A stretch of DNA of 64,000 nt from Chiloscyllium plagiosum (taxonomy: Eukaryota): assembly GCF_004010195.1 (NCBI RefSeq), contig NC_057718.1, forward strand, positions 43,098,395 through 43,162,394, in the 5' to 3' direction. The notes under the pieces were generated by a model, which saw nothing but the letters and a program-made list of their open reading frames with translations, did not search any database and had not been told where the DNA came from. Positions 1,448 through 52,392 of the stretch are shown piece by piece. How positions within the stretch are numbered: the first letter of the stretch is position 1; each line of letters opens with the position of its first letter. A program made the translations under genes and the position numbers.

Positions 1448-1568
1448 AAGAAAGTGAGGAATGCAGATGCTGGAGATCAATGAAAAGTGTGGTGCTGGAA
1501 AAGCACAGCAGGGCAGGCAACATCCGAGGAGCAGGAGAATCAATGTTTCAGGCATAAGCCCTTCATCA
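1448..1568 (-). mobile_element. Short hammerhead-bearing PLE-derived repeat, family A (truncated)
   Basis: Matches the copies at 34542, 44670 and 52206. Minus strand reads TGATGAAGGGCTTATGCCTGAAACATTG. Confidence 0.8.
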
Positions 1569-1869
1569 TACTCTACTTAAGCTTACAGAGAGTGCTGTGG
1601 CATCAATTGGAGGCCTTGAGCCTGATTTCAACAGTTCTACTCAGGCCATTAGTCATGAGAATAGAGCATTTTCTGTTCCTTTTAGGTTACATCACAGGGA
1701 GAATGAGCAGAAGTGATTCAAAAGAGGAGAAGCTGTGGAAAGTGAGTAGGACAAAAGGGAGAAGTGCTATCAGCAGGAGGTTATATCTCTGCGCATCCTT
1801 TAGGGTGCAATTCTTAACATCAATGAGGAACAGCATGTTCAATGTCTCTGTTTCAATAAGAAGGCACCC

Positions 1870-2159
1870 ACTGAAGTCTACCGCCTGTTACAAGTAAACC
1901 CTCAGCTTCAGAGCAGGTTGAATGTAGCATTGCTAGTGGCTGTGTAGATGACTGTGACCATAATATTTTTCACTTTGGACTCCTTGCATGCTGCAGCAAA
2001 TGACCTCTCCAACATCCCTCTGTGCATTATGCATTGTTGTACAAGAGAGGCCACTGATGCTGAGCAGGTGGAGGGGTCAGTAGGTAGCATTCTTTCTATC
2101 TAAAAAGAACATGATGGAGAGAGCTTGTCACTTTGCTGGGAAGACAGGTTTCCCCACAG
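1870..2159 (+). pseudogene. Decayed PIF/Harbinger (HARBI1-type) transposase fragment
   Basis: Hand translation gives TEVYRLLQVNPQLQSRLNVALLVAV*MTVTIIFFTLDSLHAAANDLSNIPLCIMHCCTREATDA../..MMERACHFAGKTGFP. This follows the HARBI1 HTH region up to the GFP motif that precedes GAIDCTH, with a stop and a frameshift. Confidence 0.75.
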
Positions 2160-2773
2160 CATCACTGCCTCTCCCTCTCAGAGGCACCTCAGTAATCCTA
2201 ACAATATGTTGGAGGATAAATTCTTGGGCTTCTCCGAGATCCTGACAGTGCCTGTGAACACTGCTACCCAGTCATGATGACAGCTACCTGAGCTTGCATG
2301 ACACCAAGCTGCGCTTGCACAATCATGGTTTGAGCTTCCACTGTGGCACGCATACATTGGACGGGTTCGATTTGTGCTGCAGTGAAAGTTGAGACATCAG
2401 CCATCAGTCGCTCCAGCATTGTTTGGTCCACAAGTGTGCTCATGGAGTTGGTCACCACTTACACACTAAAAAGGATGGATTACAAACTCTGCAAAAACCC
2501 TGTGCCTGGACTCCTCCATTCTCCTTGACATTGACCACTGACTTTCTGCCGATCCATCAAGCTTTACATTGTGCATGCCTTTTTTTCTGCAGCTACACGA
2601 CCAAATACTTCATCCGAACACTCTCGAGCCGAAGTCCTATGTGACCTTGCCTCTGGCAAGCTGACACTCAGGCTAATCTTTTACCCTTGCATTAACTGAA
2701 GGCCACACGTACCTGATCTCTCCACATTTGGATCTCACCTCTAGTCCTTAAGGTACATGCAGCATCGATAGCT

Positions 2774-3430
2774 GAGCAATGTGTGCAATTCTGGTCTCCC
2801 TCGTATTGGAAGGATGATATGAAACTTGAAAAGGTTCAGAAAAAATTTACAAGGTTGTTGCCAGGATTGGAGGATTTGAGCTATAGGGAGAAGCTGAATA
2901 GGCTAGGGCTGTTTTCTCTGGAGTATTGGAGGCTGAGTGGTGACCTTATAAAGGTTTAAAAAATCATGATGGGCATGGATAGGGTAAATAAACAAGTTCT
3001 TTTCCCTGGGGTGGAGGAATCCAGAACTGGACGACATAGGTTTAAGGTGAGAGGGGAAAGATTTGAAAGGGACATAAGGTGCAACGTTTTCACACAGAGG
3101 GTGGTGCGTGTATGGAATGAGCTGCCAAAGGAAGTGGTGGAGGCTGGTACAATTACAACATTTAAAAGGCATCTGGATGGGTATATGAATAGGAAGGGTT
3201 TACAGGGGTATGGGCCTCATTGGTGCTGAAGAGCTTATGCCAAAAACATCGATTCTCCTGCTCCTTGGATGCTGCCTGATCAGCTGTGCTTTTCTAGCAC
3301 CACATTCTCGACTTCAGAGGGGCATGGGCCAAGTGCTGGCAAATGGGACTAGATTAGGTTAAGCTATCTGGTCAGTATGGATGAGTTGGACCGACTGGTC
3401 TGTTTCCGTGCTGTACATCTCTGTGACTCT
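2774..3430 (+). mobile_element. 5'-truncated CR1 (HER1-like) LINE inserted in the Harbinger fossil
   Basis: Homologous to 278-817, with in-frame stops and the same 3' UTR and tail. Interrupted at 3217-3315. Confidence 0.93.
3217..3315 (+). mobile_element. Family A hammerhead-type repeat fragment nested in CR1
   Basis: GCTGAAGAGCTTATGCCAAAAACATCGATTCTCCTGCTCC..., flanked by the duplication acaggggtatgggcc (3202-3216) / agaggggcatgggcc (3316-3330). Confidence 0.8.
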
Positions 3431-5800
3431 AAGTGATGTTCCTTCATTAGTCTCTTTCTGGTGTTGCACTTACTGCTCCTGAATCACTTTCTGGCCAGGC
3501 AGAGGTTCTTAGATAACTGAAAGATGAAAGGGAAAAGGGCAGGATTGTGGTGAGAGAAAAGCATGAGAATAATGCCTTAGACTGTTTGCAGCTTATAACT
3601 ACAAAAATGTCAGCAGTGACTATAAGTGGAATGTGCGAAGATTTGGATAGGTACTTACATCTTCCATACTTTCAGTCCCACTTTAGCCAAAGCTTCAGTC
3701 TAATCTGCTCCAATGATGGCCAGCACTGTCTCCATCAAGGGGGTGAGGACGTGCAACCCTGCCTGTCCCTCACTACTGAGGTGTAGCAGGCTATAATTGT
3801 GTGCCATCTGGTTGTGCAAAAGAAAGGAAAGTATGCCAGTCAGTTTGGTGAAATGTGTTTAGTTTATATGTCCCTGATTGTTGTATAGCTGGCAGTGTGT
3901 GCAGGCTGTGAGTATCACTCTAAGAGCAGTGCTAATCGTATGAGGATGGGGTGAAGCAATCTCTTAGCCGTGGGACAAGCAGCAGTGGTGAATAGAGAAA
4001 TACGAGTAGATAGTGATTCATTGATAAGGATATGATATATTCAAAGGTACATTCATTGACTTTGACCATTTTTGTGAGATCATCAAACTTTTTTGCTACA
4101 CTTCATCCAGCTGTCTGCTCCCAAGGCCGTCAAAGTTTTTCTCTGTGATTATAACATCTCTCTCTCTCTCTCGGAGAACCTTGGAGTATGCCTGGACATA
4201 CTCTCCCAGTAATAACTCACCTTCACCTTAAGGAGGGCAATCTGGTTTTAAGTAGTCCTAGCCTTGAGCAACATTGCTCCCTCCACTTAGATGTGCATCC
4301 ACTTAGCAGCACAGTTAGTGCAGTGTACACACTAGTGCCAAGCAAATGAACAGATTGCAGAGTTTGCATGTTCTGTACAGCGGAAATGACCGAGCTGAAT
4401 TAATTGTATCTCAATTTCCACGTCCACATATCAAACCTGGGTCTTTCCACCAATTATGAGGTTGTTGGAGTTGCCAGGGGGTGCGGAATATGTCAAGGAT
4501 AGAGTGGAGGACCCAATACCCTGAATGCAGAATGGAGATGGCTACAGGTGCTGAGGCAAGCTGTTTAAAAGGCCAATCTCAGATCCCTGGGACTTTGTCA
4601 CAGTTAATTTATCGAATATTACGCTCTTTAACTTTACCCCTCACATTCCCACCCAGTCCACGTATCCCACTGACATCAGCACATTCAAATCCAATCACTT
4701 CTTATATCATCATGCTTCACATCCTTCATGCTAACGCCTCTTCTAACCCACTCATATGGCTTCTAGCTTTCATGCCAACTTATGCCAACCCATCCTTTAT
4801 ACAAACATAATCCATGTCAATTCACTCAACATTAAAAAGACCCTAGGAACCATTTTGGGATTAAACAAAATAACGTTCTAACTATATTATAGTGTTACTA
4901 CATAAAAAAAAATCATCAAAGCCAATTCAAAGCATTTGAGTTCCCTCAATTATTTAATCCCTTTTAAAATCGTAAGTACTTGAATTCATGACCCTACATT
5001 AAAGATTTTTCATCCTTAAATTTAGGATTCCATGCTGAGGTAATAAGGTTTATGGAAAGCAGCTAAACAATAATGATAACGTAGTGATAACCCTTGGGAA
5101 AATCTCAACAAATAGTTAGCATATTTACTTGTAGAATCATTTTAAACTTTTCTGATTCAGACAAGCATTTTTTCATTTTTCAAGAGTTGTGAATTTAACT
5201 ATCTTCATAAGTTTGACTATTTAAAACACTGACTGTTGCATGCAGATTGTTTATATAACATTAGAGCTGGGAATTTCAATAACAAGGCTTGACAGTTCCA
5301 CAGACATAATCTGCTCTTCAAGAGCACATATGAATCCTCCCACAGTATTGGGTTCCAATGTCATGGTGATCCTCGTTTCCTAACTCTCTGATACATTCCT
5401 GGGCCTCTTCTCCCTACCAGTGAAAATGAGTTCTGTCGGAAATGAGGACAGGATTTCCACATTTGGGTCCTGCATACCATCTTTGGCAGGAAAAGTGCTG
5501 TCTTTTTGTCAATGTCTGTGAGAAATCTAATTTTAAAACAAAATGAGTTATTACCATTTACTCAAACCATTGGTGCAGTCAAATCTGATTCTTAATATTT
5601 AATACCTTTTAAAATATACATATATTTGCATCTTTGAACATAAAATTATTTATTTTTTTCTTTTATGTAATACTTGGAAATGTTTTTACTTGCTTCTCTT
5701 TCCTGTGGATTATTTCTTTGTATTTCTGTTTTCCAGTCTTTTTCATTTATTTGAGTTCTCTGAACGCTTATTCCTCTGTCACCTCCTCCGTGTCTTTCAG

Positions 5801-5893
5801 TTGGAGGACGGAGATGTTCCAAGATTCTCATATGTGTAAATGAATCTCTCGGAAACTGGAAAAAGCGACAAAGCATTGGCAACAGTGAATTGG
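5801..5893 (+). other. Candidate 93-nt exon of an unidentified host gene
   Basis: A long pyrimidine tract ends in tttcag at 5800 and a GG|gtaaag donor follows at 5894. One frame is open throughout (GGRRCSKILICVNESLGNWKKRQSIGNSEL); alternatively an ATG at 5840 gives MNLSETGKSDKALATVNW. Neither peptide was recognised. Confidence 0.25.
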
Positions 5894-6439
5894 GTAAAGT
5901 GTTTGTGACTGGACTATTATCAAAGATAGTAGCACCAAAGGGGGATCTCAAAAAGAGGGGTTATGAGTATCAAACAGTAGAACTGATAAAAGAGGCTGGA
6001 TTTGTAGGAGCGAATAGGTTAATAAGTTAGGTTAAGAATTAAATAGGAAGGGATATCTTTTACATTACTTAGGTTATACCCTTTCCTTTTTCACTGCATT
6101 TGTATCAAAACTTATGATTATGCTGTGTAGAGCAATTTTGGTTCCCACAGCAGTTTCTCAGACCTAGAAATGTGAAGCACAAAAATATCAAAATGAATAT
6201 TTTCTTATATTTTGAGACCAGCATTCAGCAAGCTTAATCATTGCAGTCTTAACAATAAAACAAGAATTTTATTCTTAGATACTTCAAAACAAAACTGAGA
6301 AATATTTGGAAGGGAATTAATTCATTGGCACAGCAACAACATTCAAACAATAAGGAAAGTGTGTGTCTCCTGAGTTTAAAGATCTGTGTCTGGTTTTAAA
6401 TCCATCACCTGCTACTGACAAAAAATTGGAAATAAGAGC

Positions 6440-6553
6440 TTGTGTTTGCACAATACCATGATGTCTATACTTCAAAAGTACATCATTGGTCATGAAGTGC
6501 TTTGGGATATCCTGAGGTCATGAATGATGCTATATAAGCACAACTTCTTTCTT
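6440..6553 (+). mobile_element. 3' tail of a Deu-domain SINE
   Basis: cttcaaaagtacatcattggtcatgaagtgctttgggatatcctgaggtcatgaatgatgctatataagcacaac matches the tails at ~20870-20960 and ~36590-36672. Confidence 0.7.
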
Positions 6554-7191
6554 TTAATGTGTTTCTCCCTTGGGTAGGAACATTTGATTGTTTTGATTTT
6601 TCTCCTTTTCCTTTCTGGTCTCATGGGCTATACAACTTCCAAAGCTGAGATGGCATGTACATCACCTGCTCTTTAGTTGATGAGATTTTCCCTGAATCTC
6701 TAGATTCTCTCTTACTTTTCCTGAGTTCTCAATTCTTCCTTATAGTGGTGTGAACTGATTTATTTTCTGTGCATTCTTGGTAAGAACACAGCATCTCTTG
6801 TGGCTTGAATGAGTTAATTCACCAAACTTAATCCATAACTGAAGTTATATCCTTGCATATTTCTTTCTGGAATGGGCTGTTTGGCTTTTTGGCTATTTAG
6901 CTTTGTGATTTACTTGGGATTTGTTTTCTCATCACCTAGTTGGGTACTGGAGAAAGTGATCATCTTCCCTTTGTGGAACATTCCTAATCTTCATTTTGTC
7001 ATAAATTCAAAATATATGAACCCTTTGCACTGAGTTTTTAAGACTAGTCTAAAAGTAATTTATTTGCACAGAAATGAAAATCTAAAACTCCAAGTAGCAC
7101 AGGATAGTGAGCAGCTATATGTGAACTATTCATTTGTCGACGTAGGGCAATGTTGAATGGCAGGGCATGACCATTACTTGATTCGTAATGT

Positions 7192-7372
7192 TAAAAATCA
7201 TACAACAGGTTATCGTTCAATAGGTTTATTTGGAAGTACAAAATTTCGGAGCGACCCGATAAAGGAACGGCACTCTGAAAGCTTTTATTTCCAAATAAAC
7301 CTGTTGGACTTTAACCTGGTGTTGTGTGATATTTAACTATCCACCCCAGTCCAACACCAGCTCCTCCACATT
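7192..7372. mobile_element. Family B hammerhead-type fold-back element (degenerate)
   Basis: Inverted arms ttaaaaatca...ttggaag / ttccaaataaacctg...gatatttaa, with TSD ttgattcgtaatgt (7178-7191) / ttgattcataatgt (7373-7386). Confidence 0.8.
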
Positions 7373-7454
7373 TTGATTCATAATGTAAGTTATCCAAATA
7401 CTTCAAGATTGAGTAACTCCAGTAAGGGAATTCTCATTTGCATCAATGTCAATT

Positions 7455-7568
7455 AAGAAGGGTTACACCTGAAACGTTGACTTCTCCACCTCCAGATGCT
7501 GCCTGGCTTGCTGTGTTCTTCTAGCTTCCTGCCTGTCTACTTTGGATTCCAGCATCTGCAGTTTTTGT
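7455..7568 (+). mobile_element. Family D hammerhead-type repeat, 5'-truncated inside the core
   Basis: AAGAAGGGT-TAC-ACCT-GAAACGTTG is followed by the gatgctgcctgg...tccagcatctgcagt 3' segment shared with families A and C. Confidence 0.7.
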
Positions 7569-7908
7569 GTTTGTCTCTATCCAAACTGGGAAATCAGCAG
7601 GCAAAATTGAGCGCACATTTGTCACTCAGTTGCTCTGGGCATTAGTATTTTGTCTCCCTGTGCTACTTTGCCATGCCACAAATGTACATGTTTGCCTATT
7701 TCACCACTGTTCAACCATAATTGAGATTGATGCAAATGAGAACTCCCTCACTGGAGTTTCTCAATCTTGAAGTATTTGGATAACTTACATTACGAATCAA
7801 TTTATGGAGGAGCCGGTGTTGGACTGGGATGGACAAACTTAAAAGTCACACAACACCAGGTTACAGTCCAACAGGTTTATTTGGAGATGCCGGTGTTGGA
7901 CTGGGGTG

Positions 7909-8408
7909 NNNNNNNNNNNNNNNNNNNNNNNNNNNNNNNNNNNNNNNNNNNNNNNNNNNNNNNNNNNNNNNNNNNNNNNNNNNNNNNNNNNNNNNNNNNN
8001 NNNNNNNNNNNNNNNNNNNNNNNNNNNNNNNNNNNNNNNNNNNNNNNNNNNNNNNNNNNNNNNNNNNNNNNNNNNNNNNNNNNNNNNNNNNNNNNNNNNN
8101 NNNNNNNNNNNNNNNNNNNNNNNNNNNNNNNNNNNNNNNNNNNNNNNNNNNNNNNNNNNNNNNNNNNNNNNNNNNNNNNNNNNNNNNNNNNNNNNNNNNN
8201 NNNNNNNNNNNNNNNNNNNNNNNNNNNNNNNNNNNNNNNNNNNNNNNNNNNNNNNNNNNNNNNNNNNNNNNNNNNNNNNNNNNNNNNNNNNNNNNNNNNN
8301 NNNNNNNNNNNNNNNNNNNNNNNNNNNNNNNNNNNNNNNNNNNNNNNNNNNNNNNNNNNNNNNNNNNNNNNNNNNNNNNNNNNNNNNNNNNNNNNNNNNN
8401 NNNNNNNN
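7909..8408. other. Assembly gap (500 N)
   Basis: Run of exactly 500 N. Confidence 1.
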
Positions 8409-8429
8409 AACAGGTTTAATTGGAAGCAG

Positions 8430-8458
8430 TAGCTTTCAGAGCACTGCTCCTTCATCAG
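8430..8458 (-). ncRNA. Minimal type I hammerhead ribozyme motif (family B), probably degenerate
   Basis: Minus strand reads CAC-CUGAUGA-A-GGAGC-AGU-GCUCU-GAAA-GCUA-CUG. The core is intact, but the first stem I pair is mismatched (sister copies read GUG). Confidence 0.65.
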
Positions 8459-11400
8459 GTGGTTGTGGAGTCCACAAACTTATGAAGGAGCAGCGCTCTG
8501 AAAGCTCGTGCTTCCAATTAAACCTGTTGGACTATAACCTGGTGTTGTGTGATTTTTAGGTATATTTGGAAGTAAAAGCTTTCGGAATGCTGCTCCTTTG
8601 TCAGGTAGCTCCGAAAGCTTGTACTTCCAAATAAATCTATTGAACGATAACCTGTTGTGTGATTTTTAACACTATGAATCAAGTAATGGTCATGCCCTGC
8701 CATTCAACATTGTCCCATGTCTATGAATGAATAGTTCACACATAGCAGCTCACTATCCTGTGCTACTTGGGGTTTTAGATTTTCATTTATGTGCAAATAA
8801 ATTACATTTGGATTCAACTTAAAAACTTGGTGCAAAGGTTTTGTTTATTTTGAGTTTATGACAAAATGAAGACTAGGCACACTCCACGTTCCACCTGAAA
8901 TGTTGATTTCCCAATTTTAGCAGCATAGGCAGTATAGTCATTGTATAGATAATGTATAGGGATAGAGAGAAAAGTGGAGGAGACTTCAACAGTGCTATCT
9001 TCTCCTGTGACCTCTACTGCTGCAAAGGACAATAGCAGTAATGTTGTGAAAACACTGCCACCTTCAAATTCTTTTCTAAATCACACATTTCCTGATTTAT
9101 ATGTATCTCATTGTTCGTTGTCTTTATGGTAATGACTTGGAATTCCCTGTATCGTATCCTACTAGTAGAACGATTGCCAGAAAGTCTGCAATTGCTCAAG
9201 GAGAATGTTCATTGTCATCTGTTCAAGGCAGCTAAAGATGGACAATAAACATAATGTTGCCTTTTCACTTAGAACGAAGAAAAAGTCAAATCTGTTGATT
9301 CCCCCAGTGCTTTCCGGTGACCAGTTAGGAAGACCAGAGGCTCAACAAGAAACAGGCCAATCATCCTCCCAGCAGCAGGTTTGCTGAGGCCAGGGAGATG
9401 GAAGATACGGTTTAATTTACCAGAAGAAAAATGCATTAAAAATTAAAAGAAATGTAACTGTACTATCAAATTCAAACATTCATCAGTATAAGAAAAACGT
9501 AGGCTAACTGTACAAGTTCAATGTCTCAGAACCTTGAAAGCCGACAATGATCATTTAGATGTTTTTATTTTAATTATATTCAAAAGAATGTATTAATCAT
9601 TTCATCCTGTCATTCCAGTTTCCATTTTCTCTGTATGTTACACTGTGCTAAATGGTGATGGATTTCATTTTTTTTCTGTGGTACTGTAATTAACTGAAGT
9701 CCGTACAACCTAATTTTGTGCACAAACATATATCCCGAATATTGCTTTGGCTTGTATCAAAAGTAATACATTTAGGCTTGTGCAGAACAAATTTAATTTG
9801 ATAGCAGATGGTTTGATAAATCAAGAGTCATGTACTTTTCCTTTTTTTCTGGGCTTGGATTATTGGGGTGAAAGGAAACGTCTTCAAAAGCTCTTCTTCA
9901 GCATATTAGTTGTTTAAGATCCAGAACTGAATCCAATGCAAATCAGGTTTTGTCTATCGAGATGTTAAGTTGTTTTTTATCATAAAGGTTATTTTTGTAT
10001 TAAAGTAAAGGCCATGACTGCATAGTGAGGAGAGAAATTAGAATACCACTAGTTCATATTTCGAAAAATGAAATTGAGATTCCCTAGAGGTTTATAAGCA
10101 GTTGCTTTAGGGAAGAGGAAACATTTAATGCTGCAGTGAAAGGAACCAAAATAAAGAGCTCACTGGTTCTTGTGTAGGCTGTAAGTAGCACATGAGAAGC
10201 AGCATCTAGCATCCGCGTATTCAGCATCAGCATTAGGTTTCATATCCTGTTAAAGATAGAAATATATAGCAGGTAAAATGAACATTGTGCGAATATTAGA
10301 GTATTGTTTCTAAGCTTTACATCAGAGCTGTCAAAATGTATTCACAGAATTGGCCATGCATTTAATCTTCAATAATTCTGTACAGTTTCTCAAAATATTT
10401 TTAAGTTCATAAATCTATCCTGTTGTATTCCAAAATTTTGCTTGACGTTTTGTCAGCACTGGTTATTCTGATATACTGTACGATTTATAAGACATTCTGG
10501 TCATTGAGAATTCCAGATTGGTACAAAGGAAATGGTTATAGCAATTCTTCCGTATTACCATAAATAATTTTCTTTTTGCACAAATCACTGCTGCATGTCA
10601 AGCAGTTCTTTATGAAGACAGTATGGTGTAGCCTGCCGATATGTCTGTGTCACTCCTTATTCACTTTTACCTGGGGATACACTGGAGGATTATAGAAAGT
10701 CATCGCTTCTTTTATTCCTGCATTTTCCACCCACCCATCATCAGAAATCAGCAACAAGATATTTCCAAACAGTTCCCTTGTAAACAATTAGGTTATACTC
10801 AAGATTACTTACATCAGTTTAATAAATCAAACACAAATCTTAGCTATGCAGATATCTGAGAGTTCATGACTATGTTAACTTGTATTAAGCTAAAAGAAAT
10901 TGCAAAATGATTGGGTTTCATTCTCTGAGATGTTTCAATAATTGACCTTTATAGTTTACAACCTCCGAATTTAACACAGAATGCTAACACTGGTAATGAA
11001 GATTAAATAAAGTCTTACCAAAAGCATCAAAGTGAAGATAGATTGAGTCAACAAAAACATTTGCTATAGATCAATGTTATAATATAGTAGTCTGTCTATT
11101 TTAAAGCTCTTCTGCAGAAATTTATTTCTGTCTGTTTCTGAGTAGGTAGAAGTAGAATAGGTAAGGCAGTTGGAATTATAGTAATTACTGTGGAATTTAA
11201 CAAGATGCTGAAAATAGTTTTTTTTGAATTTGTTTAATCATGGAATGTTCTAAATGTTATAATTTTTAAAAAATCCAAACAGGTTATCAAGATGACATAG
11301 AATGCTTATATTATCCAAGCACTGTAACATCTTGATGAGAAATACTATGATTGTTACCCATCCCTCTAAAGGGGTGTTATGCAGTAGACGCCTTAATCAG

Positions 11401-18507: not shown

Positions 18508-20507
18508 TGAATGAGTTGAAAAAAAGTACTGGAGCCCATGGTACTGGCAAAGTAGACAATGCTGAAAGGAAGTGCAGACTATAACCGAATTCTTGCATTT
18601 CCTCTCCACCAGGAGATGAACTGCTAGTAACCAGTTGGAACAGCCATGATGTTAGTTACAAAAATTAGACAGAAAGCAGGTCAATTAAATTTCCTCATTT
18701 AGGGTCCTGAAGGAAGACAGTGACGCCACATTTTTGCCTGTCCAAGTCCAATGAATTTGATAAACCATGTAAATTCTATGAAAGTTTGAAGCTGCATTAA
18801 AGTGTGTGCTATTGAAATACAGCATCGAGTAGCATATTACTTTAAACGTGTCCTTTCATCAATTTTTTTCTGTTTGCAGTGGCTGTTTGTGTATGGTGAA
18901 TTTGGAAAATGATACAAAGTGTCTTGGATGATGATGATAAAAAATGACCCTAATTCTTTTTAAGAAGGAATTATGCAATACTTGAAGTTAGCACTTGCAG
19001 TTGTTCCCCTATCCACTCCCCTATCCGACTCTATCTTCCAAGATCTGAATCTTGGCCGAGCATTCAGAAGAAGGATGATTGTATCAGGACGATGGAAGTG
19101 AAGCCAGTAAATGAGTCAAACTCGCTCTCTTGTCAGACTTTTATGTGTTCTAGCAGATGAGGAGAGTACAGTGCCCAGAAAGTGATTTTCTGTCCATTCT
19201 CTTTGGTTTGGAGAGAACCTGAACTAGGTGTCAGTTTTTGTAAAAAAACTTTCCTTTGTTGAGGAAGGAAAAGTTAAATTCCTTCTGTCTTCTAAAAATG
19301 AATTTGTATATGAAATATAAAACATAATTCCTCTATGAAAGACGCATGTGCTACTTGCAACTAATTGTTTTATCGCCACTTAGGAAATAAGTGGCCAATT
19401 TTCACTGGCAATGTGTTATGCCACAGAGTGGTGGCTGATGGGATTGCATTTACAAATCCTTCCCAAATGTTGGGTTCGGTGGATGCCAGGCACCAGCCTA
19501 CAGGAAGGGAGAAGTGTGAGCCAGACTAGAACACTTCTGCACCCCCTGGTGGCTAGCTCAGAACAACATCTACAGTGCTCTGGGATCAGATCGACCAATC
19601 CCTGCATTGTAACCAGTGTGCAGAACAGAGAGATCAAACTGAGGAAGTTTGTAACTGAAGAAGGTTGGAGGACTCCGAGGAAAAAAAGAGAAAAAAACTA
19701 ATTTCTATTGGGTTAAATACACACTCATTATTCTTTCCCATTAACTAAGTGAATGATCTGTAATAGTTTTGACAATCAATGTAGAAAATGCTGACTATGC
19801 CTGATTTTAAGGTAGCCGACAGGTGGAATCAAGCTAGCAATGCAAAAGTGGCATCAAATCACTTACTGTCTCCTTTATGATGACTGCTAACATCTTGGAA
19901 GAGGCCTTATGATGGATGACAGGCACATCTGCCTGTTGTAGAGGTAGACACTTTTAATACGTAAGTTATGTCCCCTGTACATGTCTAGATAGCAATTTCA
20001 ACAAATCTTTTCTCATTTATTTTTTGTGAAACCAGGTGGAGACAATCCCGACTCCGCTGCAGTACTTTGGATTGCTGCCTCCTTACTCACTTATCCCATA
20101 TCTCCCATGATCAGCTCTCCCACCCTTCATTATCAAACCCACATGCTGCTGGCCTGCTCAGCTCTGCAGTTTGAGGGGTGAGGTGGAACATGTTGTATGT
20201 TTACAATGTACAATTCACTGGGGCCATGCAAAGCTAGTCCAACGGTCAATGGCAGAAAGGTCATAATCTACGTCATTATCTCTACCCTCTGTGCATGCAC
20301 TGCTCACAAGTAAAGAATTGGTGTTGTTTAGGAAACTCCAAAGTCTCTGTGTATCTACCGATGTATGTGTGTACGAGAGAGGGATGGAGATAGAAAGAGA
20401 CTGAGGGTGGAATTTTGACATTCGGGGAAGGAAACAGGAGTCACAAATGTTCTGTGATCTTGAACATGTCCCCAGGGTTCACAGTCATGGGAATTTGACC
20501 AGGAAAT

Positions 20508-24730: not shown

Positions 24731-25544
24731 CATAGAATCCCTACAGTGTGGAAGCAGGCCATTTGGCCCATCAAGTCCATACTGACCCTCTTGTATAGAT
24801 CCCACCCAGAACCAGATTCACCCCACCTACCCAATCCTATCCTTATAACCCTGCATTTCCCATAGCTAATCCACCTAGCCTGCACAACCCTGGACACAAT
24901 GGGCAATTTAGCATGGCCAATCCACCTATCCTGCATAACCCTGGACACTATGGGCAATTTAGCATGGCCAATCCACCTACACTGCACGACCCTTGGCACA
25001 ATGGGCAAGTTAGCATGGCTAGTCCACATATATGCATGATCCTGGACACAATGGGCAATTTAGCATGGCTAATCCACCTACCCTGCATGACCCTGGACAC
25101 TATGGGCAATTTAGCATGGCCAATCCACCTACATTGCACGACCCTGGACACAATGGGCAAGTTAGCATGGCTAGTCCACATATATGCATGATCCTGGACA
25201 CAATGGGCAATTTAGCATGGCTAATCCACCTACCCTGCATGACCCTGGACACTATGGGCAATTTAGCATGGCCAATCCACCTACCCTGCACGACCCTGGA
25301 CACTATGGGCAATTTAGCATGGCCAATCCACCTACCCTGCACGACCCTGGATACTATGGGCAATTTAGCTTGGCCAATCAACCTAACCTGCACATCTTTG
25401 GACTGTGGGACCACCTGGAGGAAACCCACGCAGACACAGGGAGAATTTGTAAACTCCACACAGACAGTTGCCCGAGGTTGGACTTGAATCAGGTCCCTGG
25501 CGCTGTGAGGTAGCCATGCTAACCACTGAGCCACCATGCTGCCC
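24731..25544 (-). mobile_element. HE1-type V-SINE with internally amplified tandem array
   Basis: Head gggcagcatggtggctcagtggttagc at 25544, V-domain, and tail ...cacactgtagggattctatg at 24731. Confidence 0.92.
24888..25395. repeat. Minisatellite of ~10 units of 50-51 bp with a 152-bp higher-order repeat
   Basis: Unit starts at 24888, 24939, 24990, 25040, 25091, 25142, 25192, 25243, 25294 and 25345. Consensus ccctggacactatgggcaatttagcatggccaatccacctaccctgcacga. Confidence 0.95.
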
Positions 25545-27709: not shown

Positions 27710-27942
27710 CACAACATCAGCTTATAGACCTATAAGTTTATTTGGAAGCACTAGCTTTTGGAACACTGCTCCTTCAGCAAGTGGCTGTTGAGCAGGATCA
27801 TTAGACACAGAAGTTATAGCAAAAGATTACAGTATCATGCAACTGAAACAACATATTGAACATTGTTCAATTGTTCATTGAAATATTGTTCAATATGATT
27901 TTTAACTTTGTTCACTCCAATCCAACACTGGCACCTCCACAA
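27710..27942 (-). mobile_element. Family B hammerhead-type element with inverted segment
   Basis: ggaagcactagcttttggaacactgctccttcagcaagtgg is a degenerate core on minus. TSD aaaggtaatctca (27697-27709) / aaaggtcatctca (27943-27955). Confidence 0.78.
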
Positions 27943-31435: not shown

Positions 31436-31782
31436 GAGCAGCACAATGGCGCAGAGGTTAGCACTTCTGCCTCTCAGCACCAGCGACCCAGGTTTGGTTC
31501 CAGCTTTGGGTAGCTGTCCATGTGGAGTTTGCACGTTTTCCCTATGTCTGCATGGGTTCTCTCTCGGTGCTCTGGTTTCCTCCCACAGTTCTCATATGTG
31601 GGAGATTAGGTGGATTGACCATGCTAAATTGCCAATAGTGTTCAGGGATGTGCAGGCTTTGTGGATTATCCAGAGTAAATGAGATTGATTGGGGGGGGGC
31701 AGAGTCTGGAGGGATGCTTTTTGGAGGGTCAGTACAGACTCAGTGGCCCAAATGGCCTCTTTCTGCACTGTAGAGATTCTGT
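31436..31782 (+). mobile_element. HE1-type V-SINE
   Basis: Head, V-domain (tgtggagtttgcacgttttcc...ggtttcctcccacag) and tail gcactgtagagattct. Confidence 0.9.
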
Positions 31783-31883
31783 AGTTGTGCAGCACAATTG
31801 GCTAATTTAAAGGAGATGATTCAGTTGGGGCCTATTAAGGCTCATATCTGCATTTCTAATTTGCTTCCAAGGCCATTAGTCAT

Positions 31884-32005
31884 TTTGATAATGAGTCACC
31901 GGACTCGAAACATTAACTTTGCTTTCTCCCTGAGAGGCTGCCGAAACTGTTGAGTTTTGCCAGCAACTTCTGTGTTTGTTTCAGATCTCCAGCATCCAAA
32001 GTTTT
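31884..32005 (+). mobile_element. Family C hammerhead-type repeat (degenerate)
   Basis: TTGATAAT-GAGTC-ACCG-GACTC-GAAACATTA, then ...tttcagatctccagcatcc. Confidence 0.7.
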
Positions 32006-32703: not shown

Positions 32704-33858
32704 TATTTGCTACCTGGGTTGTAATTTTGAAGAGCTAGAGGAAATTTCATATCATGGATGTAAATGCACTGTCTTAATAATAAGCTTGATTACTGACACG
32801 TTTCGTGATGCCAGGGAGGGTTTTAAACTTAGGTAAGAAAATGCCCGATTCTGGGTATCCCACTCCTGAACCCTGCACCCACCATGTGCGTTGGCGTAAA
32901 ACGCTATGGATTGTACTTTGCATATCCGTGTTGCATGAAGACAGCTAGATATAGCTGCCTTCAAGCAGTCAATTTTCATAATTGGGATATCCAACACATG
33001 TATTGTGGGCGTTATATCTTTCAGGAGAAGAACAAATGATGCCAGAGTTCTTTGGGAGGGTATCCTTCTGAAGAGATAAATGTTCCCTTTTAGATGGGCC
33101 CTGTGCAATATTATCACTCTGAATAGGTCCAGGGATACTTTTGAGAGAGATTCAGCACCATGTGGGAGAGGTAAAACACCCTTTAGAATTGTTGAAGACA
33201 GTCATGAATATGTATAAAAGAGAAAGGATGAACTTGTTGGAACATTCAAATTGATTGGAACTGACATGTTGTTTAGGGGACGTCAAGCCATCAAAGGAGC
33301 TGTCACAATATTAAGTTAACTGTCAAGTTAAATCTCCTCATCTTTAAATTGTTTACACAACTGTTGTGTATTAACCAAAAAGTATTTGCTATTTAATTGA
33401 TTGTCATTATGAACTTTGTGCTGATTCCAAAACCCATCCTTATCACGATGGGGCATCTGTCACTTAACAATTGGATTGGCAGCTCTGAACACTTAAAAAA
33501 ATTCTTAGAAGTGGGGCTATAAATAAAAATGATTATTGGTTGACCCTTCGTACTAAATGTCCAGAATTTCTCCTCTGGGGTCAGGAAATGTAGATATGAG
33601 CCTTAATAGGCCCCAACTGAATCATCTCCTTTAAATTAGCCAATTGTGCTGCACAACTACAGAATCTCTCCTCAGTTCTGTCTTAAATTATTATTTGTGG
33701 AAGGCATTAAGTAATTAGAGAATTTTGTTTTCACTGCCAGCCAGAATGAATTTTTAAAAATATTATCGATTAATTAATAGTTAATTAACTATCTATTTGA
33801 GTGGAGATTTCTCCTTCCTGTAATGTGAGCAATGGCAAGAATAGTGAGAAAATATTTT

Positions 33859-34541: not shown

Positions 34542-34702
34542 GAGGAGACAGTGAGGTCTACAGATGCTGGAGATCAGAGTTGAGAGTGTGTTGGTGGAAA
34601 AGCACAGCAGGTCAGCCAGCATCCGAGGAGCAGGACAATCAATGTTTCGGGCCGGAGCCCTTCATCCTGAGGTGCTGTGCTTTTCCACCAACATACTCTC
34701 AA
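34542..34702 (-). mobile_element. Family A hammerhead-type fold-back element
   Basis: Perfect 17-bp TSD ctcaccatttcatcatg (34525-34541 / 34703-34719). 34673-34702 is an inverted copy of ~34580-34609. Minus strand reads GATGAAGGGC-TCCG-GCCC-GAAACATTG. Confidence 0.88.
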
Positions 34703-34892
34703 CTCACCATTTCATCATGTCTGTTCTCAGACCAAATCACACATTGCTTCTCCTCTTCAATACTCTGTCATTCAGGAACATCCATAACGGGCACATCTTT
34801 TGCCAGATCACTTTGTGTGCAGGGACACATACACATCTGACAGGTCTAAAATGTCCTGACCCCAGAGCAGAAAATCTGGACATTTAGTACAA

Positions 34893-35162
34893 AGGGTTAA
34901 CCATTTAAGACAGAACTGAGGAAGAATTCCTTTTCTCAAAGCAATTAGCCTTTGGCATTCTCTACCCCAGAGAGTTTGAATAGCTGAATATTTTCAAGAC
35001 TGAATTAGATAGATTCTTGAACTAAAGAGTAGTCAAATTTATGGGAAACATGCAGGAAAGTGGAAGTAAGGCCAAAATCAGAGCAACGCTAATCTTCACC
35101 ATTGAATGGTGAAGCAGTCTTCGGGGTGATATGGTCCACTGTTGATACAATTTCTTGTTCTT
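34893..35162 (+). mobile_element. Old CR1 LINE 3' fragment (different subfamily)
   Basis: ccatttaagacagaactgaggaagaattccttttctcaaag...tagatagattcttg...attgaatggtgaagcag. Confidence 0.65.
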
Positions 35163-44059: not shown

Positions 44060-44320
44060 CCATCTCTATAACGTCTATCATTGGAAGCTACACTTTCAGC
44101 TGTTTAAACTCAAACCTTGGAATTTACACTCTAAACTTCTTCATCTTACTCTCCTTCTGCAAGTCATTCTTTAACTCCTACCTAGTTGACCAACCTTTGG
44201 CCATCTTTCATAATATTCCTATCTCTGTGTCTCAATGAAAAAATGTTTGATTATGTTCCCTTGAAGTACTTTAGGATGAGTTTGCAACATGAAGATATTT
44301 ATATCAATGTACTTTGTTGT
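44060..44320 (+). mobile_element. Old L2 LINE 3' end
   Basis: Diverged match to 52480-52810 and 62810-63145. Confidence 0.55.
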
Positions 44321-44729
44321 GTGTCAATGCCAGGAGCATTATTGCTGTTTAATGTTTGTAAAATAGTGTGTTCTATCTTATTGTTAATTGCAGTATCACA
44401 TAGTATCAAAGGCAGAATTCTCCACTCTCCTTGAACTATGTGGGATGAGAAAGTTGACAAAATAGGTTGAAAATGAAAAAATTAGGTTTTTGAATTTGAG
44501 AAAAAAATTCTTATTTTCCCTTTCAGATTTAAATGGTGAGTTCAGAAACTGACTAATGAGTAGTGACTTCCATGTAACATTTGCCTGAATGCTGTCATTT
44601 CTGTCCAGCTCCCAATTATCTCCTTTCCCAAGACAGGTGCCAATTCCTGACAGGAAAGTTAGAGCGGTAGATTGGAGTGGTGCTGGAAAGGCACAGCAGG
44701 TCAGGCAGCATCCGAGGAGCAGGAAAATT

Positions 44730-44757
44730 GACGTTTCGGGCAAAAGCTCTTCATCAG
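44730..44757 (-). ncRNA. Minimal hammerhead ribozyme motif (family A)
   Basis: CUGAUGA-A-GAGC-UUUU-GCCC-GAAA-CGUC: intact core, GUC triplet, one stem II mismatch. Confidence 0.7.
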
Positions 44758-44770
44758 GAGTGCTATATTC

Positions 44771-44798
44771 CTGATGAAGGGCTTTTGCCCGGAACGTC
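44771..44798 (+). ncRNA. Minimal hammerhead ribozyme motif (family A), core point mutant
   Basis: CUGAUGA-A-GGGC-UUUU-GCCC-GGAA-CGUC: perfect stem II, GAAA changed to GGAA. Confidence 0.6.
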
Positions 44799-45481
44799 GA
44801 TTTTTCCTGCTCCTCGGATGCTGCCTGACCTGCTGTGCTTTTCCAGCACTACTCTAATCTAGACTCTGGTTTCCAGCATCTACAGTCCTTGTTTTGACCA
44901 AGTTAGAGTGGTAACCTGGCGGCAGTGCTCATGGCATGTTTTCCGGACCTTCATCCAACCTTGTCTTCACCATAATGTCCCTGCATGCTCCATGGCCATG
45001 GTTCTCTTCCATCCTTCATCCAAGCAAGTTAGTGACAGCAAACTAGCAGCCTCACCAATCATTATGCTGGTTCTCATATTGACTTGCACACCATTTTAGC
45101 CCTTCAGAGCTTCATTTTGGAGCCCAGGGATACTTACGACTTACATCCTTTTGCCAAGTTGCATTGTGCACAGAGACATGCACATTTCTCATGCATCTGC
45201 ACAGGATACGTCTTTTGACTCCTAGCTTTAATCCTTAGCATTCAATCACCTTGCATTTACTTGGAGGTTGCTAGCCTCTGTGGCTTGCATTGATTTGTAG
45301 TAGGTAGCAACATGAAACAGTTCAGAGCACTGAACAGTAAAAGAGGTGGGCATATTGCTGTACAGCTCTGAGCTTTGTCAGTTTCACACCTACAGCCTGA
45401 GTCAGTTGCTTACTTGGCAAAAACAAAGCATATGTTTCAACCAAGCACCATACATGAAAATCAAAGGGAAAGTTCTTAACA

Positions 45482-45507
45482 GTGTGTGTGTGTGTGTGTG
45501 TGTGTGT
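45482..45507. repeat. (GT)13 microsatellite
   Basis: Read directly. Confidence 0.95.
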
Positions 45508-45974: not shown

Positions 45975-46205
45975 AATTTTGTGGAGAGCAGAGGATTGTT
46001 AACCTCCTTCCTAGAGGGCAGTGTGTCGTGTTTTACTGGGACATACACTGACCCCAATTTCAGTCCAGTCTGATTGTGTCTGGTGTTATGGCCTCCTTTG
46101 CCACTCAGCAGGGTACAACATTGCTTTTCTTTCCACCATGCTACCTGCCAACATCTTTAAGTCTCTGACAGCAAAGCAAGGAGCTAACTTGCCATTCTGA
46201 GCCAT
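45975..46205 (-). pseudogene. Decayed Harbinger Myb/SANT-like exon
   Basis: KLAPCFAVRDLKMLAGSMVERKAMLYPAEWQRRP*HQTQSDWTEIGVSV...RKEVNNPL fits the APxF..DL..L...R..L...W.EI...CRKK.NDL pattern. Confidence 0.65.
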
Positions 46206-49200: not shown

Positions 49201-51058
49201 GGTTATCTTGAGTAGGTCTGTTGATGATTAATTGATTATAATTGATTGGAACATTTTAATCAACAAAAAATTAATCAATTAATTGACTTATTATTGAGCA
49301 GGCTGGCACAGACGTAGTTCAGTGCTGTCTACTCATTTGATCTTGTTGTTCTGATCTTATTCCTCAAAAGAATGTTCAGATTGTTGTAATAAAGTACAAA
49401 ACACAAATATTTTTTGGTCTTTTGTTTATTAGCTGAGCAAAGGGCATCAGCAATCTAAATAAACTAGAGTTTGTTCTATAGAGCCACTAGTGTATTACTG
49501 CCTTATGTAAGTGGAAGAAAATTTAGTACACAAGCAAGTTATGCCATTTTTTGAGAAATGATGTAAGGAAATCTGTTGAAGTAAAAAAGTGAAATATTTT
49601 ATGATTAAATAAATGACAGAGACTGATTAAAATAATATGCTGGAACTGTTTTAACAAGATGTCACCATATATTTTGAGATGTCAGACAGAATGAGGTGGT
49701 TTGATTGGAAATTCTTCTCACCATATATTTCTACTACCTCACTCCTCTCCTTGCTGCCAGTCATAGGGCAGCTGTTTTTGTCATTCTGCATTGGCAAACA
49801 AGAGCTCTATTTTTTGATGTTAAATGGAGCCCCTAATCAATTTACTTCACCTCTTGTTTAAAAAGAAAATGGAGTTGCTAAGAATTATAGCTGCTGGCCT
49901 GCCTAAGAGTCAATTGAATTTTGTGGGCAAAATAGCAGAGTCTAAATGTCGTTGGAGCCCTGTGCCATGTACCTGCCATCAGTCACTATTGTAAAGCAGT
50001 CTAGGCAAATAGACAAATAGGATTATAGGGCAAATACTATTCAGATCAATCTGTAAAATATCTTTTGGTGAGCTTATAGGTAAGCAAATTATTTGAAGGC
50101 ATAAAGTTGTATTATGGCTCAGTTTTACATGTAGCATCAGCCTATAGTCTCCTGTTGATGTGGTTATTCTTGGTATGTAAGCAGGGGCAGTGAATGTCTC
50201 TAGGATATTGAATCATGAGGGAAGTTGCATACTGGCACTTTCCATATGGAATCATTATATATAAATGTGGGGCAGTCTAGCTGTGAATTTTCACCTTTTT
50301 ATGTCTGGGATGCTGAAGCTAATTGGAACACTTCTCTGACACCTGGTTGAAACTTCTTAACTCAGAACATCTTGAACTGTATTGCTCAGTTACACATTGG
50401 TCAGTGCTCTTGTCAGTTGGATGAGTTGGGGAAGTACCAATCAAATTCATTAAAGTAGTGAATTATTTGAAGTTGGTATATATTTTTAATAAACTGGACT
50501 GAATTGTTTCAAAGGTTATTAATGAAATAGGGGTGAGCTTGCGTCTACAAAGCACTCTTGTTTGTCACTGTATTAATTTCAAATACATTTTATGTGTGCT
50601 ACAAATAACAGATTGAAAGTCCGTTCTGATGGTAAGGTAAGTTAAATCATTATTGATTTTCGTGATTTTTCCTTTTTATTAACCAGGTAGAAGCAATGTA
50701 AAGTATTACTGTAGTAACCCAAGATCCTGTGGCAGGTGGGATTTGTTTCGCATTTGGGAGATATATGTAAACAGTCCAAGAAGTACAAACTATGTTGAAA
50801 ATTACAAAACAACATTAATTGCCAGTGCTTATGTATGTTATTTTTCGTAGTAAGTATTTATTAGGTTTTAATAATTTAGCAGCTTGTTTTCATTTTCTGT
50901 TTTCTCTGCTAACCCCTTGCTTTTAATGACACATAACTTATTGGTCTGTTCACATAATTGAAAGGATAGTACCAGTAAGTTGCAAGCATCCAAAACTCCT
51001 GTCAGTCCCGCTCTATAATTTGCAAAAAGACGTGGGCCAGCAATAGTATGTATATGCA

Positions 51059-51165
51059 AAATGAACTAAAGAACTGCAGATGCTGGAGATCTGAAATAAA
51101 AACAGAAATTGCTGTGGGGAGAAAGCAGAATTAACACTGAGCCCAGTGGCTCTTCATCAGAACTA
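51059..51165 (-). mobile_element. Family C hammerhead-type repeat with internal deletion
   Basis: Minus strand reads CTGATGAA-GAGCC-ACTG-GGCTC (GAAA lost), then ...tttcagatctccagcatctgcagt. Possible TSD tatgtatatgca / tatatatgtgca. Confidence 0.7.
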
Positions 51166-51243
51166 TCAATATATATGTGCATGTGTCTGTTTGTCTATCT
51201 GTACCCTTCCCATGACTCTGGAAGTCTGCACCTTTCTCTTCGG

Positions 51244-51548
51244 TAGAATCATAGAATCCCCACAGTGCAGAAAGAGGCCATTTGGCCCATCAAGTCCACA
51301 CCAACTTCCTGAAGACCATCCCAACCAGACCTTCCCTATTCTTTGGCTAATTCACCTAGCCTGCCCTCCCAGGCACGTTAGCATGGCCAATCCACTTAAT
51401 CTACATATCTTTAGACAGTGAGCACCCAGATGAAACCCACTCAGACATGGGGAGAATGTGTAGACTCCACACAGACAGTTGCCCAAGCTGGAATCAAACC
51501 CAGATCCCTGGTGCAGTGAGGCAGCGGTGCTAACCACTGAGCCACCGT
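51244..51548 (-). mobile_element. HE1-type V-SINE
   Basis: Head cggtggctcagtggttagcacc, V-domain, and tail gattctatgattcta. Confidence 0.9.
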
Positions 51549-52205
51549 TCTTTCTATTCATCTTCATATTTGTTTTTCTCCTTTCCTTTCGACATTTTTC
51601 TTTACTTGCCATCTTTTCCTCTTTCAAAAAAAACCAAAGCCCACTTCAGTTTATCTCCCACCTTCCTCTTCTTTTGTCCCCAACAATCACCCCAATCCCT
51701 GTTCCACCAAATACAACTGCCCTTTGCTCCTTTGCCTTTCGTCCTCGTGGCCCACCTTACCTCATCTGCTGGTGCTGGCATGGCCAAGAGCTGATGAAAC
51801 TTGATGGTAACAGGTGGATATGAGCTTTGGGAATCAATCTCCCAAAGCCTAGAGCAGCACGATTGATTTTGTTGTTTGGATATACTCGCAGATAGCTGGG
51901 CAATGTGTATTTGGTATGTTTTTGCAATTACTGTTAAAATAATCAAAATGTTAATACAGTATTAGTGTATAATTACTTTGCTTCTAATTAGTGTCAAAAA
52001 AGAATCAAGCTATACGTTTTTCTGTCTGGTAGCTCAGGTTAAAGAGAGCTTTTTCGGCCAAATAATAATCTGTATTCTGGACTAGATTTTGAATGAGAAT
52101 TTGGCAAAATGTCTGTAACCTTGAGGTGATACAAAATTGCTGGCTTAACATGTAGTCATTCCCGAACCTCTATCAGCCCTGTGATCATTGACGCACATTG
52201 ACTCT

Positions 52206-52392
52206 GGAGAAAGTGAGGACTGCAGATGCTGGAGATCAGAGTCGAGAGTGTGGTGCTGCAAAAGCACAGCAGGTCAGGCAGCATCTGAGGAGCAGGAAAA
52301 TCGATGTTTCAGGCAAGAGCCCTTCATCAGGAATGAGCATTCCTCGGATGTTGCCTGACCTGCTGTGCTTTTCCAGCAACACACTTTCAACC
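52206..52392 (-). mobile_element. Family A fold-back element
   Basis: Minus strand reads CTGATGA-A-GGGC-TCTT-GCCT-GAAA-CATC. 52341-52391 is an inverted copy of 52241-52291. Possible TSD cacattgac / catattgac. Confidence 0.85.

Follow-up and report, generated by a model that had tools for sequence, protein, structure and literature searches.

Hammerhead cores in short insertions of the window

The stretch of the Chiloscyllium plagiosum genome analyzed here (contig NC_057718.1, positions 43,098,395 to 43,162,394; 64 kb, hereafter the window) is interspersed with short insertions carrying hammerhead ribozyme motifs, which raises the question of what these insertions are and how they were copied. 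Tabulating the cores with registers placed by hand, we found 14 hammerhead cores within 11 independent insertions, or about one insertion per 5.8 kb, in agreement with the preliminary description of about ten insertions at roughly one per 6 kb. All of the stem II variants quoted there were also present in the sequence, these being GGGC-UUUU-GCCC at 44771, GGGC-UCCG-GCCC at 34668, GGAGC-AGU/AGC-GCUCU at 8458 and 8479 (family B), GAGUC-ACCG-GACUC at 31885 (family C), GAGCC-ACUG-GGCUC at 51160 (family E) and GGGU-UAC-ACCU at 7452 (family D). Position 7886, however, which had been listed as core-bearing, is a family-B 3' end beside an N gap (7909-8408) and has no core, with cores found nearby at 8458 (minus strand) and 8479 (plus strand).

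A descriptor of the minimal hammerhead ribozyme (min-HHR), composed after the motifs had been seen and controlled with 20 dinucleotide shuffles, gave six matches with at most one defect (0 in each of the 20 shuffles), eight with at most two (shuffle mean 0.2) and 13 with at most three (shuffle mean 3.5). Twelve of these 13 were inside insertions, and the match at 19292, outside them, is probably due to chance. Because MAFFT misaligns stems of different length, pairs in stem II were counted by script. The outer four pairs were canonical in 52 of 56 cells across the 14 cores (shuffle mean 40.7, with 52 reached in 0 of 20,000) and, using one copy per family, in 20 of 20 (shuffle mean 15.6, with 20 reached in 30 of 50,000), both figures being inflated by kinship among the copies. 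Compensatory changes were seen at three positions, with G-C/A-U at 10.2 and 10.3 and C-G/U-A/G-C at 10.4, in a count resting on only five related lineages.

An extra base was found between A9 and G10.1 in all 14 cores, and the G10.1-C11.1 pair was G-C or G-U in 13 of them. The palindrome replacing helix III (15.1-16.1/15.2-16.2), noted earlier as ACGU or AGCU following GAA, was intact in 8 of 14 cores, whereas the broken ones (6 of 6) read CA or TG, the pattern expected from CpG decay. Helix I was 4 bp in family E, 3 bp in the family-B core at 27780 and 2 + 1 bp across a U-U in family A, the edge of the insertion often truncating its 5' strand. Intact catalytic boxes (CUGANGA; GAAA-N..NUH) were seen in the cores at 44757, 52330 and 8458, the last of which was nearest to intact, having a C1.1/C2.1 mismatch in stem I as its sole defect. 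At least one defect was present in each of the 14 cores, as had been claimed for every copy. An Rfam scan, proposed earlier as a check, did not recover the motif: no hammerhead family matched at E ≤ 5 in the window, and the only matches were miRNA-type hairpins below the gathering score, located on fold-backs and reflecting fold-back structure.

Anatomy of the insertions

Six of the 11 insertions (7192, 7889-8557, 27710, 34542, 44670 and 52206) have an inverted 5'-truncated copy next to the 5' end. The one at 44670..44899, of a second family-A subfamily, is a full head-to-head pair with cores at 44757 (minus) and 44771 (plus), a tail on the plus arm only and a 14-bp target duplication. Family A itself gave two such insertions, both on the minus strand. 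That at 52206..52392 has a 130-nt sense arm (52335-52206) with core 52330 and a 35-nt tail (52240-52206), an inverted short-end arm without core (52341-52392) and a weak target duplication, and that at 34542..34702 has a sense arm with tail, cut inside its core (34668), an inverted short-end arm (34666-34702) and a perfect 17-bp target duplication. Family A is also represented by two stubs, one with tail at 1448..1577 (minus; core 1569 with C3 mutated and the palindrome broken, a short inverted scrap at about 1570-1577 and no significant target duplication) and one without tail at 3217..3312 (plus; core 3223 heavily decayed), the latter lying inside another repeat and flanked by an 18-bp target duplication (3199-3216/3313-3330).

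The family-B insertion at 7192..7372 (plus) combines an inverted short-end arm (7192-7253, minus) with a sense arm having core 7256 and a tail, within a 14-bp target duplication. An inverted duplicate of it is present on the minus strand in two parts, namely its 3' part with tail and without core (7794..7888) and the remainder with core 8604 (8558..8670). Nested in this duplicate is a head-to-head family-B insertion (7889..8557) that spans the N gap, contains cores 8458 and 8479 and has a candidate 16-bp target duplication (7873-7888/8558-8573; 13 of 16 alike). The family-B insertion at 27710..27942 (minus) comprises a minus arm, whose core 27780 is decayed and which extends about 85 nt further upstream, a plus arm that is the tail end (27894-27942) and a 13-bp target duplication. 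Families C, D and E are represented by stubs, at 31880..32005 (plus; core 31885 decayed), at 7454..7575 (plus; with tail and with its 5' end falling inside the core) and at 51059..51169 (minus; core 51160 with GAAA partly deleted, an internal 28-nt deletion and a weak target duplication), respectively.

A tail of 33-40 nt, at one end only, was found in family A, its second subfamily and family B, and the same 33-40 nt separate the seven short ends of the window from its 11 long ends. With insertion ends set by hand, the distance from A9 to the long end was 110-123 nt in seven of eight measured insertions and 97 nt in family E, which has a deletion. The damaged core sits close to the 5' edge of the insertions, and their 3' end follows either at this distance or one tail sooner. 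Target duplications, 13-18 bp in length, were found at p<0.01 in five of ten insertions, with two weak and three without. Inspection of 16 tandem rows revealed no head-to-tail tandem array of hammerhead units in the window; for 10 of 14 cores no other same-strand core lay within 1 kb, and cores 146 and 196 nt from a neighbour on their strand are members of separate insertions. The centres of the fold-backs differed between insertions. Fold-back structure was strong in three of them (z -26.5, -9.2 and -13.8), and folding predicts that the ribozyme structure would be lost through the inverted arm in two of three such insertions examined, the stem II pair probability going from 0.97 to 0.00 once both arms of the 44670 insertion are folded together.

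The sequence downstream of the core is common to families A, C, D and E (nhmmer E 3e-9 to 1e-4), with family B alone being unrelated. The 'at least four lineages' counted previously are thus really two groups.

Family A in sequencing runs

Family A was very abundant in two species, with 136,300 of 21.2 million contigs in run X1 and 122,606 of 25.2 million contigs examined in run X12, from another species, aligning to one family-A copy. The summed contig depth on family A (0.7-10 million versus about 6 outside) was not taken as copy number. Among the 40 of 53 variant rows listed, the majority letters together with the loose-end consensus gave a majority sequence with an intact core, as anticipated for a family consensus and in support of a Penelope origin; within the same rows, the majority sequence too had a poor stem I (2 pairs, a U-U and 1 pair). 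The commonest letters undo defects of the window copy, with 52311 A>G at 60% and 52305 T>C, which mends the palindrome, at 46% of depth in X1, and both at 77% of RNA reads.

The 5' boundary of family A was located about 4 nt ahead of C3, at 52334, where loose ends agreed at 0.30-0.44 compared with 0.63-0.66 for the shared continuations at 52243 and 52341, and the contigs had no shared sequence upstream of this boundary. A tail-sized 33-nt duplication joint was found in nine contigs of X1 and seven of X12, and head-to-tail joints of 127-131 nt were rare (10 and 15 contigs in X1). Opposite-strand joints from 52239-52245 to 52378-52388 were rejected as short ends, because a collinear copy can have one part aligned to each arm of the reference. 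In RNA, 3,982 of 12.96 million reads were on family A, in both directions and with 1,986 under 90% alike, and these reads derive from many loci. RNA run X21 had no pile-up of starts or ends, and none at the cut site, this poly(A) single-cell library being a weak test.

Search for a Penelope reading frame and comparison with known systems

The window contains 160 stop-free frames of at least 70 aa, and none of the 150 searched against Pfam matched a reverse transcriptase (RT) or GIY-YIG family (there were three sub-threshold matches, none of either kind), which is as expected for stubs. A protein search with the translated family-A pair, seeking longer proteins, gave no match. Pattern scans of metagenome, viral and prokaryotic contigs, and blastn against plasmids, found no related locus, which is unsurprising for a repeat from an animal.

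The motif class was known before, as were its covariation and its association with Penelope. The min-HHR consensus of metazoan Penelope-like elements (PLEs), NNN CUGANGAH GNNNN..NNNNC GAAAN-palindrome-NUH (Cervera and de la Pena 2014, PMC4209133), agrees with the window motif, down to the extra base that follows A9 and the G10.1-C11.1 pair; helix I, of about 3-5 bp in min-HHRs, also seems short in the window. Published GAAA-GC-UA/UU rows (shrimp, turtle) are counterparts of family B, and GAAA-CG-UC rows (tick, fugu) of family A. Massive multi-family covarying sets, mostly single motifs of truncated PLEs together with opposite-strand pairs, were described in the same paper and resemble what is seen here, with several covarying families in one genome, mostly as single motifs and some as opposite-strand pairs. 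The preliminary description, which took the diversity in this lineage as perhaps undescribed, overrated its novelty. The density, at 11 insertions per 64 kb, appears far above that of coelacanth and Xenopus, for which 4,000 and 9,000 motifs are given (PMC4209133), and the searched part of that paper's supplement includes no cartilaginous fish. The window also differs in its short stem II (4-5 bp), and in that no PLE ORF turned up among the 150 frames searched.

According to Arkhipova 2013 (PMC3846280) and Craig 2021 (PMC8557442), the unit of endonuclease-bearing PLEs has a pLTR, an inverted 5' copy and a 30-40-bp tail. The window insertions are similar in their head-to-head inverted copy, one-end tail, target duplication and strong 5' truncation. 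They are different in that the duplications are 13-18 bp, compared with the 8-10 bp given for rotifers, that the units are only 96-233 bp and that the 5' end of family A is fixed. No partial tandem (pLTR) arrangement is seen in the window, and rare head-to-tail joints of 127-131 nt are present in contigs. In Anolis carolinensis, reverse transcription of the Poseidon element PAc begins at +111-118 from stem II (Frangieh 2024, PMC11167929). The window insertions likewise end about 110-120 nt beyond stem II and have two ends one tail apart; they also share with PAc public reads without RNA ends at the cut site, insertion into their own repeat (the nested family B) and, presumably, uncleaved RNA as template. 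The PAc ORF begins at stem II, whereas the window families are known from stubs alone. Animal non-LTR retrozymes (Cervera 2020; Li, Clavereau and Pollet, bioRxiv 10.64898/2026.07.22.740005) are defined by units repeated head to tail, every one of which bears a hammerhead; they resemble the window copies in being non-coding, in having a type I hammerhead, in kinship to PLE repeats and in one reported chondrichthyan case, but the window copies are single or head-to-head.

Discussion

Taken together, the motif consensus, the one-end tail, the inverted 5' copy and the target duplication argue that the insertions are likely to be dead-on-arrival end-stubs of endonuclease-bearing PLEs, in keeping with the preliminary description of truncated or non-autonomous PLE derivatives with minimal type I hammerheads. 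Our best reading is that the stubs would be inert copies made when reverse transcription ran off the end of an uncleaved Penelope RNA. An autonomous PLE located elsewhere in the genome would supply a protein that nicks target DNA, and reverse transcription would begin inside the PLE RNA at one of two sites one tail apart, as for PAc in vitro (PMC11167929). The reverse transcriptase would then run off, or halt, just upstream of the core, at a point that is probably the start of the copied RNA, yielding stubs of about 130 nt in great excess over full elements, and priming on both strands would give a head-to-head pair with a tail at one end. The stubs extend across the predicted cut, which would fall after GUC in family A, GUU in families C, D and E and CUA in family B, so that the template RNA would have been uncleaved. 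Selection on the hammerhead would have acted on the master elements, where cleavage would be weak, as a dimer or with protein help; the window copies would decay neutrally, and are probably inert.

Several observations sit less well with end-stubs: three insertions lack a target duplication and two have a weak one, stem I of family A is poor even in the majority sequence of the variant rows listed, one family-B copy extends 85 nt further upstream, and a fixed 5' end would also be expected of a short element that propagates itself. Known geometry likewise differs from a start only 4 nt ahead of the core, since the Drosophila virilis Penelope transcript begins about 120 nt upstream and an intron ends at helix I. 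For family A specifically, we tentatively suggest, while considering it somewhat doubtful, a discrete 130-nt ribozyme-headed unit of about 100,000 copies, whose fixed 5' edge may represent run-off of the Penelope RT from uncleaved RNA after internal initiation.

The sharp boundary at 52334, with no upstream sequence shared, could also be produced if families A, C, D and E were discrete retroelements in their own right, about 130 nt long, non-autonomous and either SINE-like or retrozyme-like, that arose from a PLE end, were transcribed alone and were recopied by PLE protein in trans. This boundary lies on the A of TCATTCC, which fits the initiator consensus YYANWYY, and the several diverged families of equal length, the few 127-131-nt joints and the retrozymes reported as PLE derivatives (one chondrichthyan included) point the same way. 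We nevertheless find such elements unlikely, as the unit forms no tandem array in the window, the head-to-tail joints are few compared with 136,300 family-A contigs, RNA starts and ends have no pile-up in X21 (again a weak test) and a palindromic unit has not been copied whole, given that fold-back centres differ between insertions. Retention of some copies by the host, as working ribozymes or hairpin sources affecting their transcript, could draw on the bidirectional RNA reads, on 8458 being one mismatch short of intact and on the long double-stranded RNA that fold-backs would form, but is highly improbable considering that all 14 cores are defective in a CpG-decay pattern, that a same-strand partner is more than 1 kb off for 10 of 14 and that the RNA reads come from many loci, with no pile-up at the cut site. 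Miniature inverted-repeat DNA transposons with an incidental hammerhead match, although compatible with strong fold-backs and target duplications, are equally improbable and already largely refuted by arms unequal by one tail, six insertions with little or no inverted arm (a full one being absent from five or more), long and variable duplications, varying fold-back centres and a stem II that covaries between families.

Returning to the end-stubs of PLEs, published work leaves unsettled what the hammerhead does in Penelope transposition or shows the ribozyme to be dispensable in vitro (PMC8557442, PMC11167929). A genome with very many stubs that start shortly ahead of the core, extend across the cut site and have two fixed end points is good material on this role. 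PLE palindromes of this kind may also be mistaken for DNA transposons or miRNA hairpins in annotation. If family A does number about 100,000 copies, no larger population of hammerhead motifs would be known from any vertebrate, and if its 5' edge does stem from run-off, family A would constitute a genome-scale record of both ends of Penelope copying, which may be used to probe the role of the ribozyme in the cycle.

Hammerhead motifs and their covariation

Comparison of the window sequence with itself resolved 11 independent insertions within 64 kb, with hammerhead motifs present at the positions given in the preliminary description. Five insertions belonged to family A (1448, 3217, 34542, 44670 and 52206) and three to family B (7192, 27710 and a nested copy at 7889–8557), while families D (7455), C (31884) and E (51059) had one each. 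The earlier proposal of several lineages held for family B, of which the window copies gave no nhmmer match to A, C, D or E, but not among the latter four, which have the region downstream in common (E between 3e-9 and 1e-4 in nhmmer). Profiles made from the window copies found no further convincing members in the whole window, all other matches having E ≥ 0.15, like a reversed-sequence control. A descriptor of the minimal hammerhead motif, drawn up only once the motifs had been seen, gave 6, 8 and 13 matches at up to one, two and three defects, as compared with 0, 0.2 and 3.5 in shuffles (n = 20). The Rfam scan that had been suggested as a check gave no hammerhead match in the window at E ≤ 5.

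Fourteen cores were aligned by hand, with registers set manually. An extra base followed A9 in all of them, the closing pair of stem II was G-C or G-U in 13, and the palindrome after GAA described earlier (15.1–16.1, 4 nt) was unbroken in eight, the six broken ones all having CA or TG. It was also borne out that stem II differs in sequence between families with its pairing kept: 52 of 56 outer cells were paired (shuffle mean 40.7), a count in which related copies are not independent, and using one copy per family all 20 of 20 were paired (mean 15.6; reached in 30 of 50 000 shuffles), with compensatory changes on both sides between families at three stem II positions. At least one defect was found in every core, as previously claimed, that of core 8458 being solely a mismatch at the first stem I pair. 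The same core features are given as hallmarks of minimal hammerheads in the sections of Cervera and de la Peña considered here, and the window motif equals their consensus (PMC4209133). Judged from sequence, the motifs appear to be minimal hammerheads, with every test that could be run in agreement except that of helix I, which is doubtful in family A.

Anatomy of the insertions

Target duplications of 13–18 bp were found at five of the 10 insertions tested (p < 0.01 against 3000 random flank pairs), were weak at two and missing at three; the nested family-B insertion at 7889–8557 had a candidate duplication with 13 of 16 bases alike. Six of the 11 insertions contained a head-to-head inverted copy, and there were two classes of 3′ end, 33–40 nt apart, with the tail confined to one arm in paired insertions. 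In these duplications, inverted copies and one-arm tails, the insertions match endonuclease-bearing Penelope-like elements (PLEs) as described in the portions used of PMC3846280 and PMC8557442. From A9 to the long 3′ end we measured 110–123 nt in seven of eight copies, to be compared with Anolis Poseidon, where reverse transcription initiates internally, 111–118 nt downstream of the point at which stem II begins; for that element, the relevant part of PMC11167929 further describes a tail equal to the interval between two such start sites, nicking and extension on both strands, and uncleaved RNA as the substrate, the ribozyme cleaving only with protein. Arms of families A, C, D and E in the window begin from about 9 nt before the core to 3 nt inside it, and one family-B copy extends 85 nt further upstream.

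No reverse transcriptase (RT) or GIY-YIG match was seen among the 150 frames scanned of 160 long frames in the window, and DNA and protein searches for relatives of the insertions (prokaryotic, viral, plasmid and metagenome collections; protein search) gave no match. By their organization the insertions seem to look and work like PLE ends, and the preliminary reading as truncated PLE derivatives with minimal hammerheads was judged correct, since anatomy and motif match published PLE features.

Family A in sequencing runs

Sequencing runs were compared with window 52120–52480, holding the family-A reference copy 52206. This copy was fitted by 136 300 of 21.2 million DNA contigs in one species (run X1) and 122 606 of 25.2 million in a second (X12), counts that refer to assembly fragments and not to copy numbers, and that show family A to be highly abundant and diverse. 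The most frequent letters in these contigs mend both defects of the 52206 copy. The consensus of the loose ends at 52341 contains an unbroken stem II together with GAAACGUC, and among the 40 variant rows listed of 53, the only varying core position besides the free N7 was G12 (8–10%, CpG). The family is sharply bounded at 52206 (3′) and at about 52334 (5′), four bases upstream of C3, loose-end agreement at the latter being only 0.30–0.44; 15 of the 16 longest pieces listed span these two points. Head-to-tail joints were rare, turning up in 10 and 15 of the X1 contigs. In a poly(A) single-cell RNA run (X21), 3982 of 12.96 million reads fitted family A; they ran in either direction, and neither their starts nor their ends piled up anywhere.

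The first ten or so letters of the loose-end consensus at 52334 are similar between X1 and X12, despite an agreement of 0.30–0.31, and may come from a longer family-A minority with common upstream sequence, a lead to the master element. At 52326 (N7), the A7 variant made up 29% of RNA reads vs about 1% of DNA contig depth, which may reflect other families mapping there or the difference between reads and contigs.

Neighbouring rearrangements and other repeats

An inverted duplicate of about 470 bp of host DNA (6983–7455), with the 7192 family-B insertion in it, is present at 7718–8877 (88–89% alike), which is why the 7192 copy occurs twice. The inner end of this duplication coincides with the point where the family-D stub begins at its 5′ edge (7455), and a scrap of 22 nt resembling family D (8890–8911, E 0.85) lies just beyond the outer end; a template switch during insertion could be the origin. 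At 7889–8557, a family-B pair has inserted at an AT-rich point of a family-B copy that is older, and the 500-N gap inside the pair (7909–8408) probably represents no more than some tens of bases, going by the length of family B. Just upstream of the family-C stub, 31772–31856 has a 99% inverted copy at 33585–33669, itself placed between inverted copies of 34851–34903 (91%) and 34903–34922 (100%); this patchwork (33537–33688) looks like a locally templated insertion. A tandem array of 51-bp units (24861–25393; 10.5 copies, 152-bp higher order) sits inside a dispersed, presumably SINE-like repeat with other copies at 31600–31780 and 51250–51560. A long repeat at 166–845, 2663–3456 and 56246–56910, the second copy of which carries the 3217 stub, we take to be a LINE 3′ end.

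Activity of the window copies

The window copies are predicted to be inert, because all cores are damaged, same-strand partners are mostly distant and stem II is lost in two of the three fold-backs examined. For 10 of the 14 cores the nearest same-strand core is more than 1 kb away. In predicted folds, the stem II pair probability fell from 0.97 to 0.00 when the arms of the 44670 pair folded together, and from 0.37 to 0.00 for core 8479 of the 8409–8557 pair; core 8458 had no predicted stem II even when folded alone. Stem II survived in the fold of 52206, an insertion with no core in its inverted arm.

Origin of the fixed 5′ edge

Insertion anatomy, covariation, the intact family-A majority core and the fixed ends are established by the data, and we propose the following mechanism. 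The RT-endonuclease of an autonomous element would prime on nicked DNA, beginning at either of two sites inside the element RNA and halting shortly before the core is reached, probably where this RNA starts; priming on both strands would give the head-to-head pair. The template RNA would be uncut, as stubs span the predicted cut site. TCATTCC at the family-A 5′ edge fits the initiator consensus. Against a stop at the RNA start counts the Drosophila virilis transcript, which, in the passages drawn upon from PMC4209133 and PMC2377424, begins 46 nt ahead of an intron of 75 nt ending at helix I. The 5′ edge may therefore instead be a splice boundary, the point where RT halts at a fold bound by protein, or the end of a self-propagating short element.

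At the tail start, where family A reads CTG, families C (31975–31990) and E (51090–51105) show a stretch of pyrimidines closed by TTTCAG that resembles a 3′ splice site; this run may be a PLE intron end, since PLE repeats carry introns.

Relation to known hammerhead families

We found no paper describing families A–E in sharks in the literature searched, which includes few subscription papers. Hammerhead tandem repeats and PLEs are reported in one chondrichthyan in the main text of a 2026 preprint (10.64898/2026.07.22.740005), whose supplements may list such families. The preliminary suggestion that diversity and density may be undescribed stood in part: large sets of families with covariation, in which most motifs stand alone in truncated elements and some form opposite-strand pairs, already appear in the sections used of PMC4209133, whereas density adds something, with 11 insertions in 64 kb as compared with 4000–9000 motifs per genome reported in coelacanth and Xenopus, although counted differently. 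The observation is real and the minimal-hammerhead kind already known; what is added to the known picture is only the density and the fixed 5′ edge.
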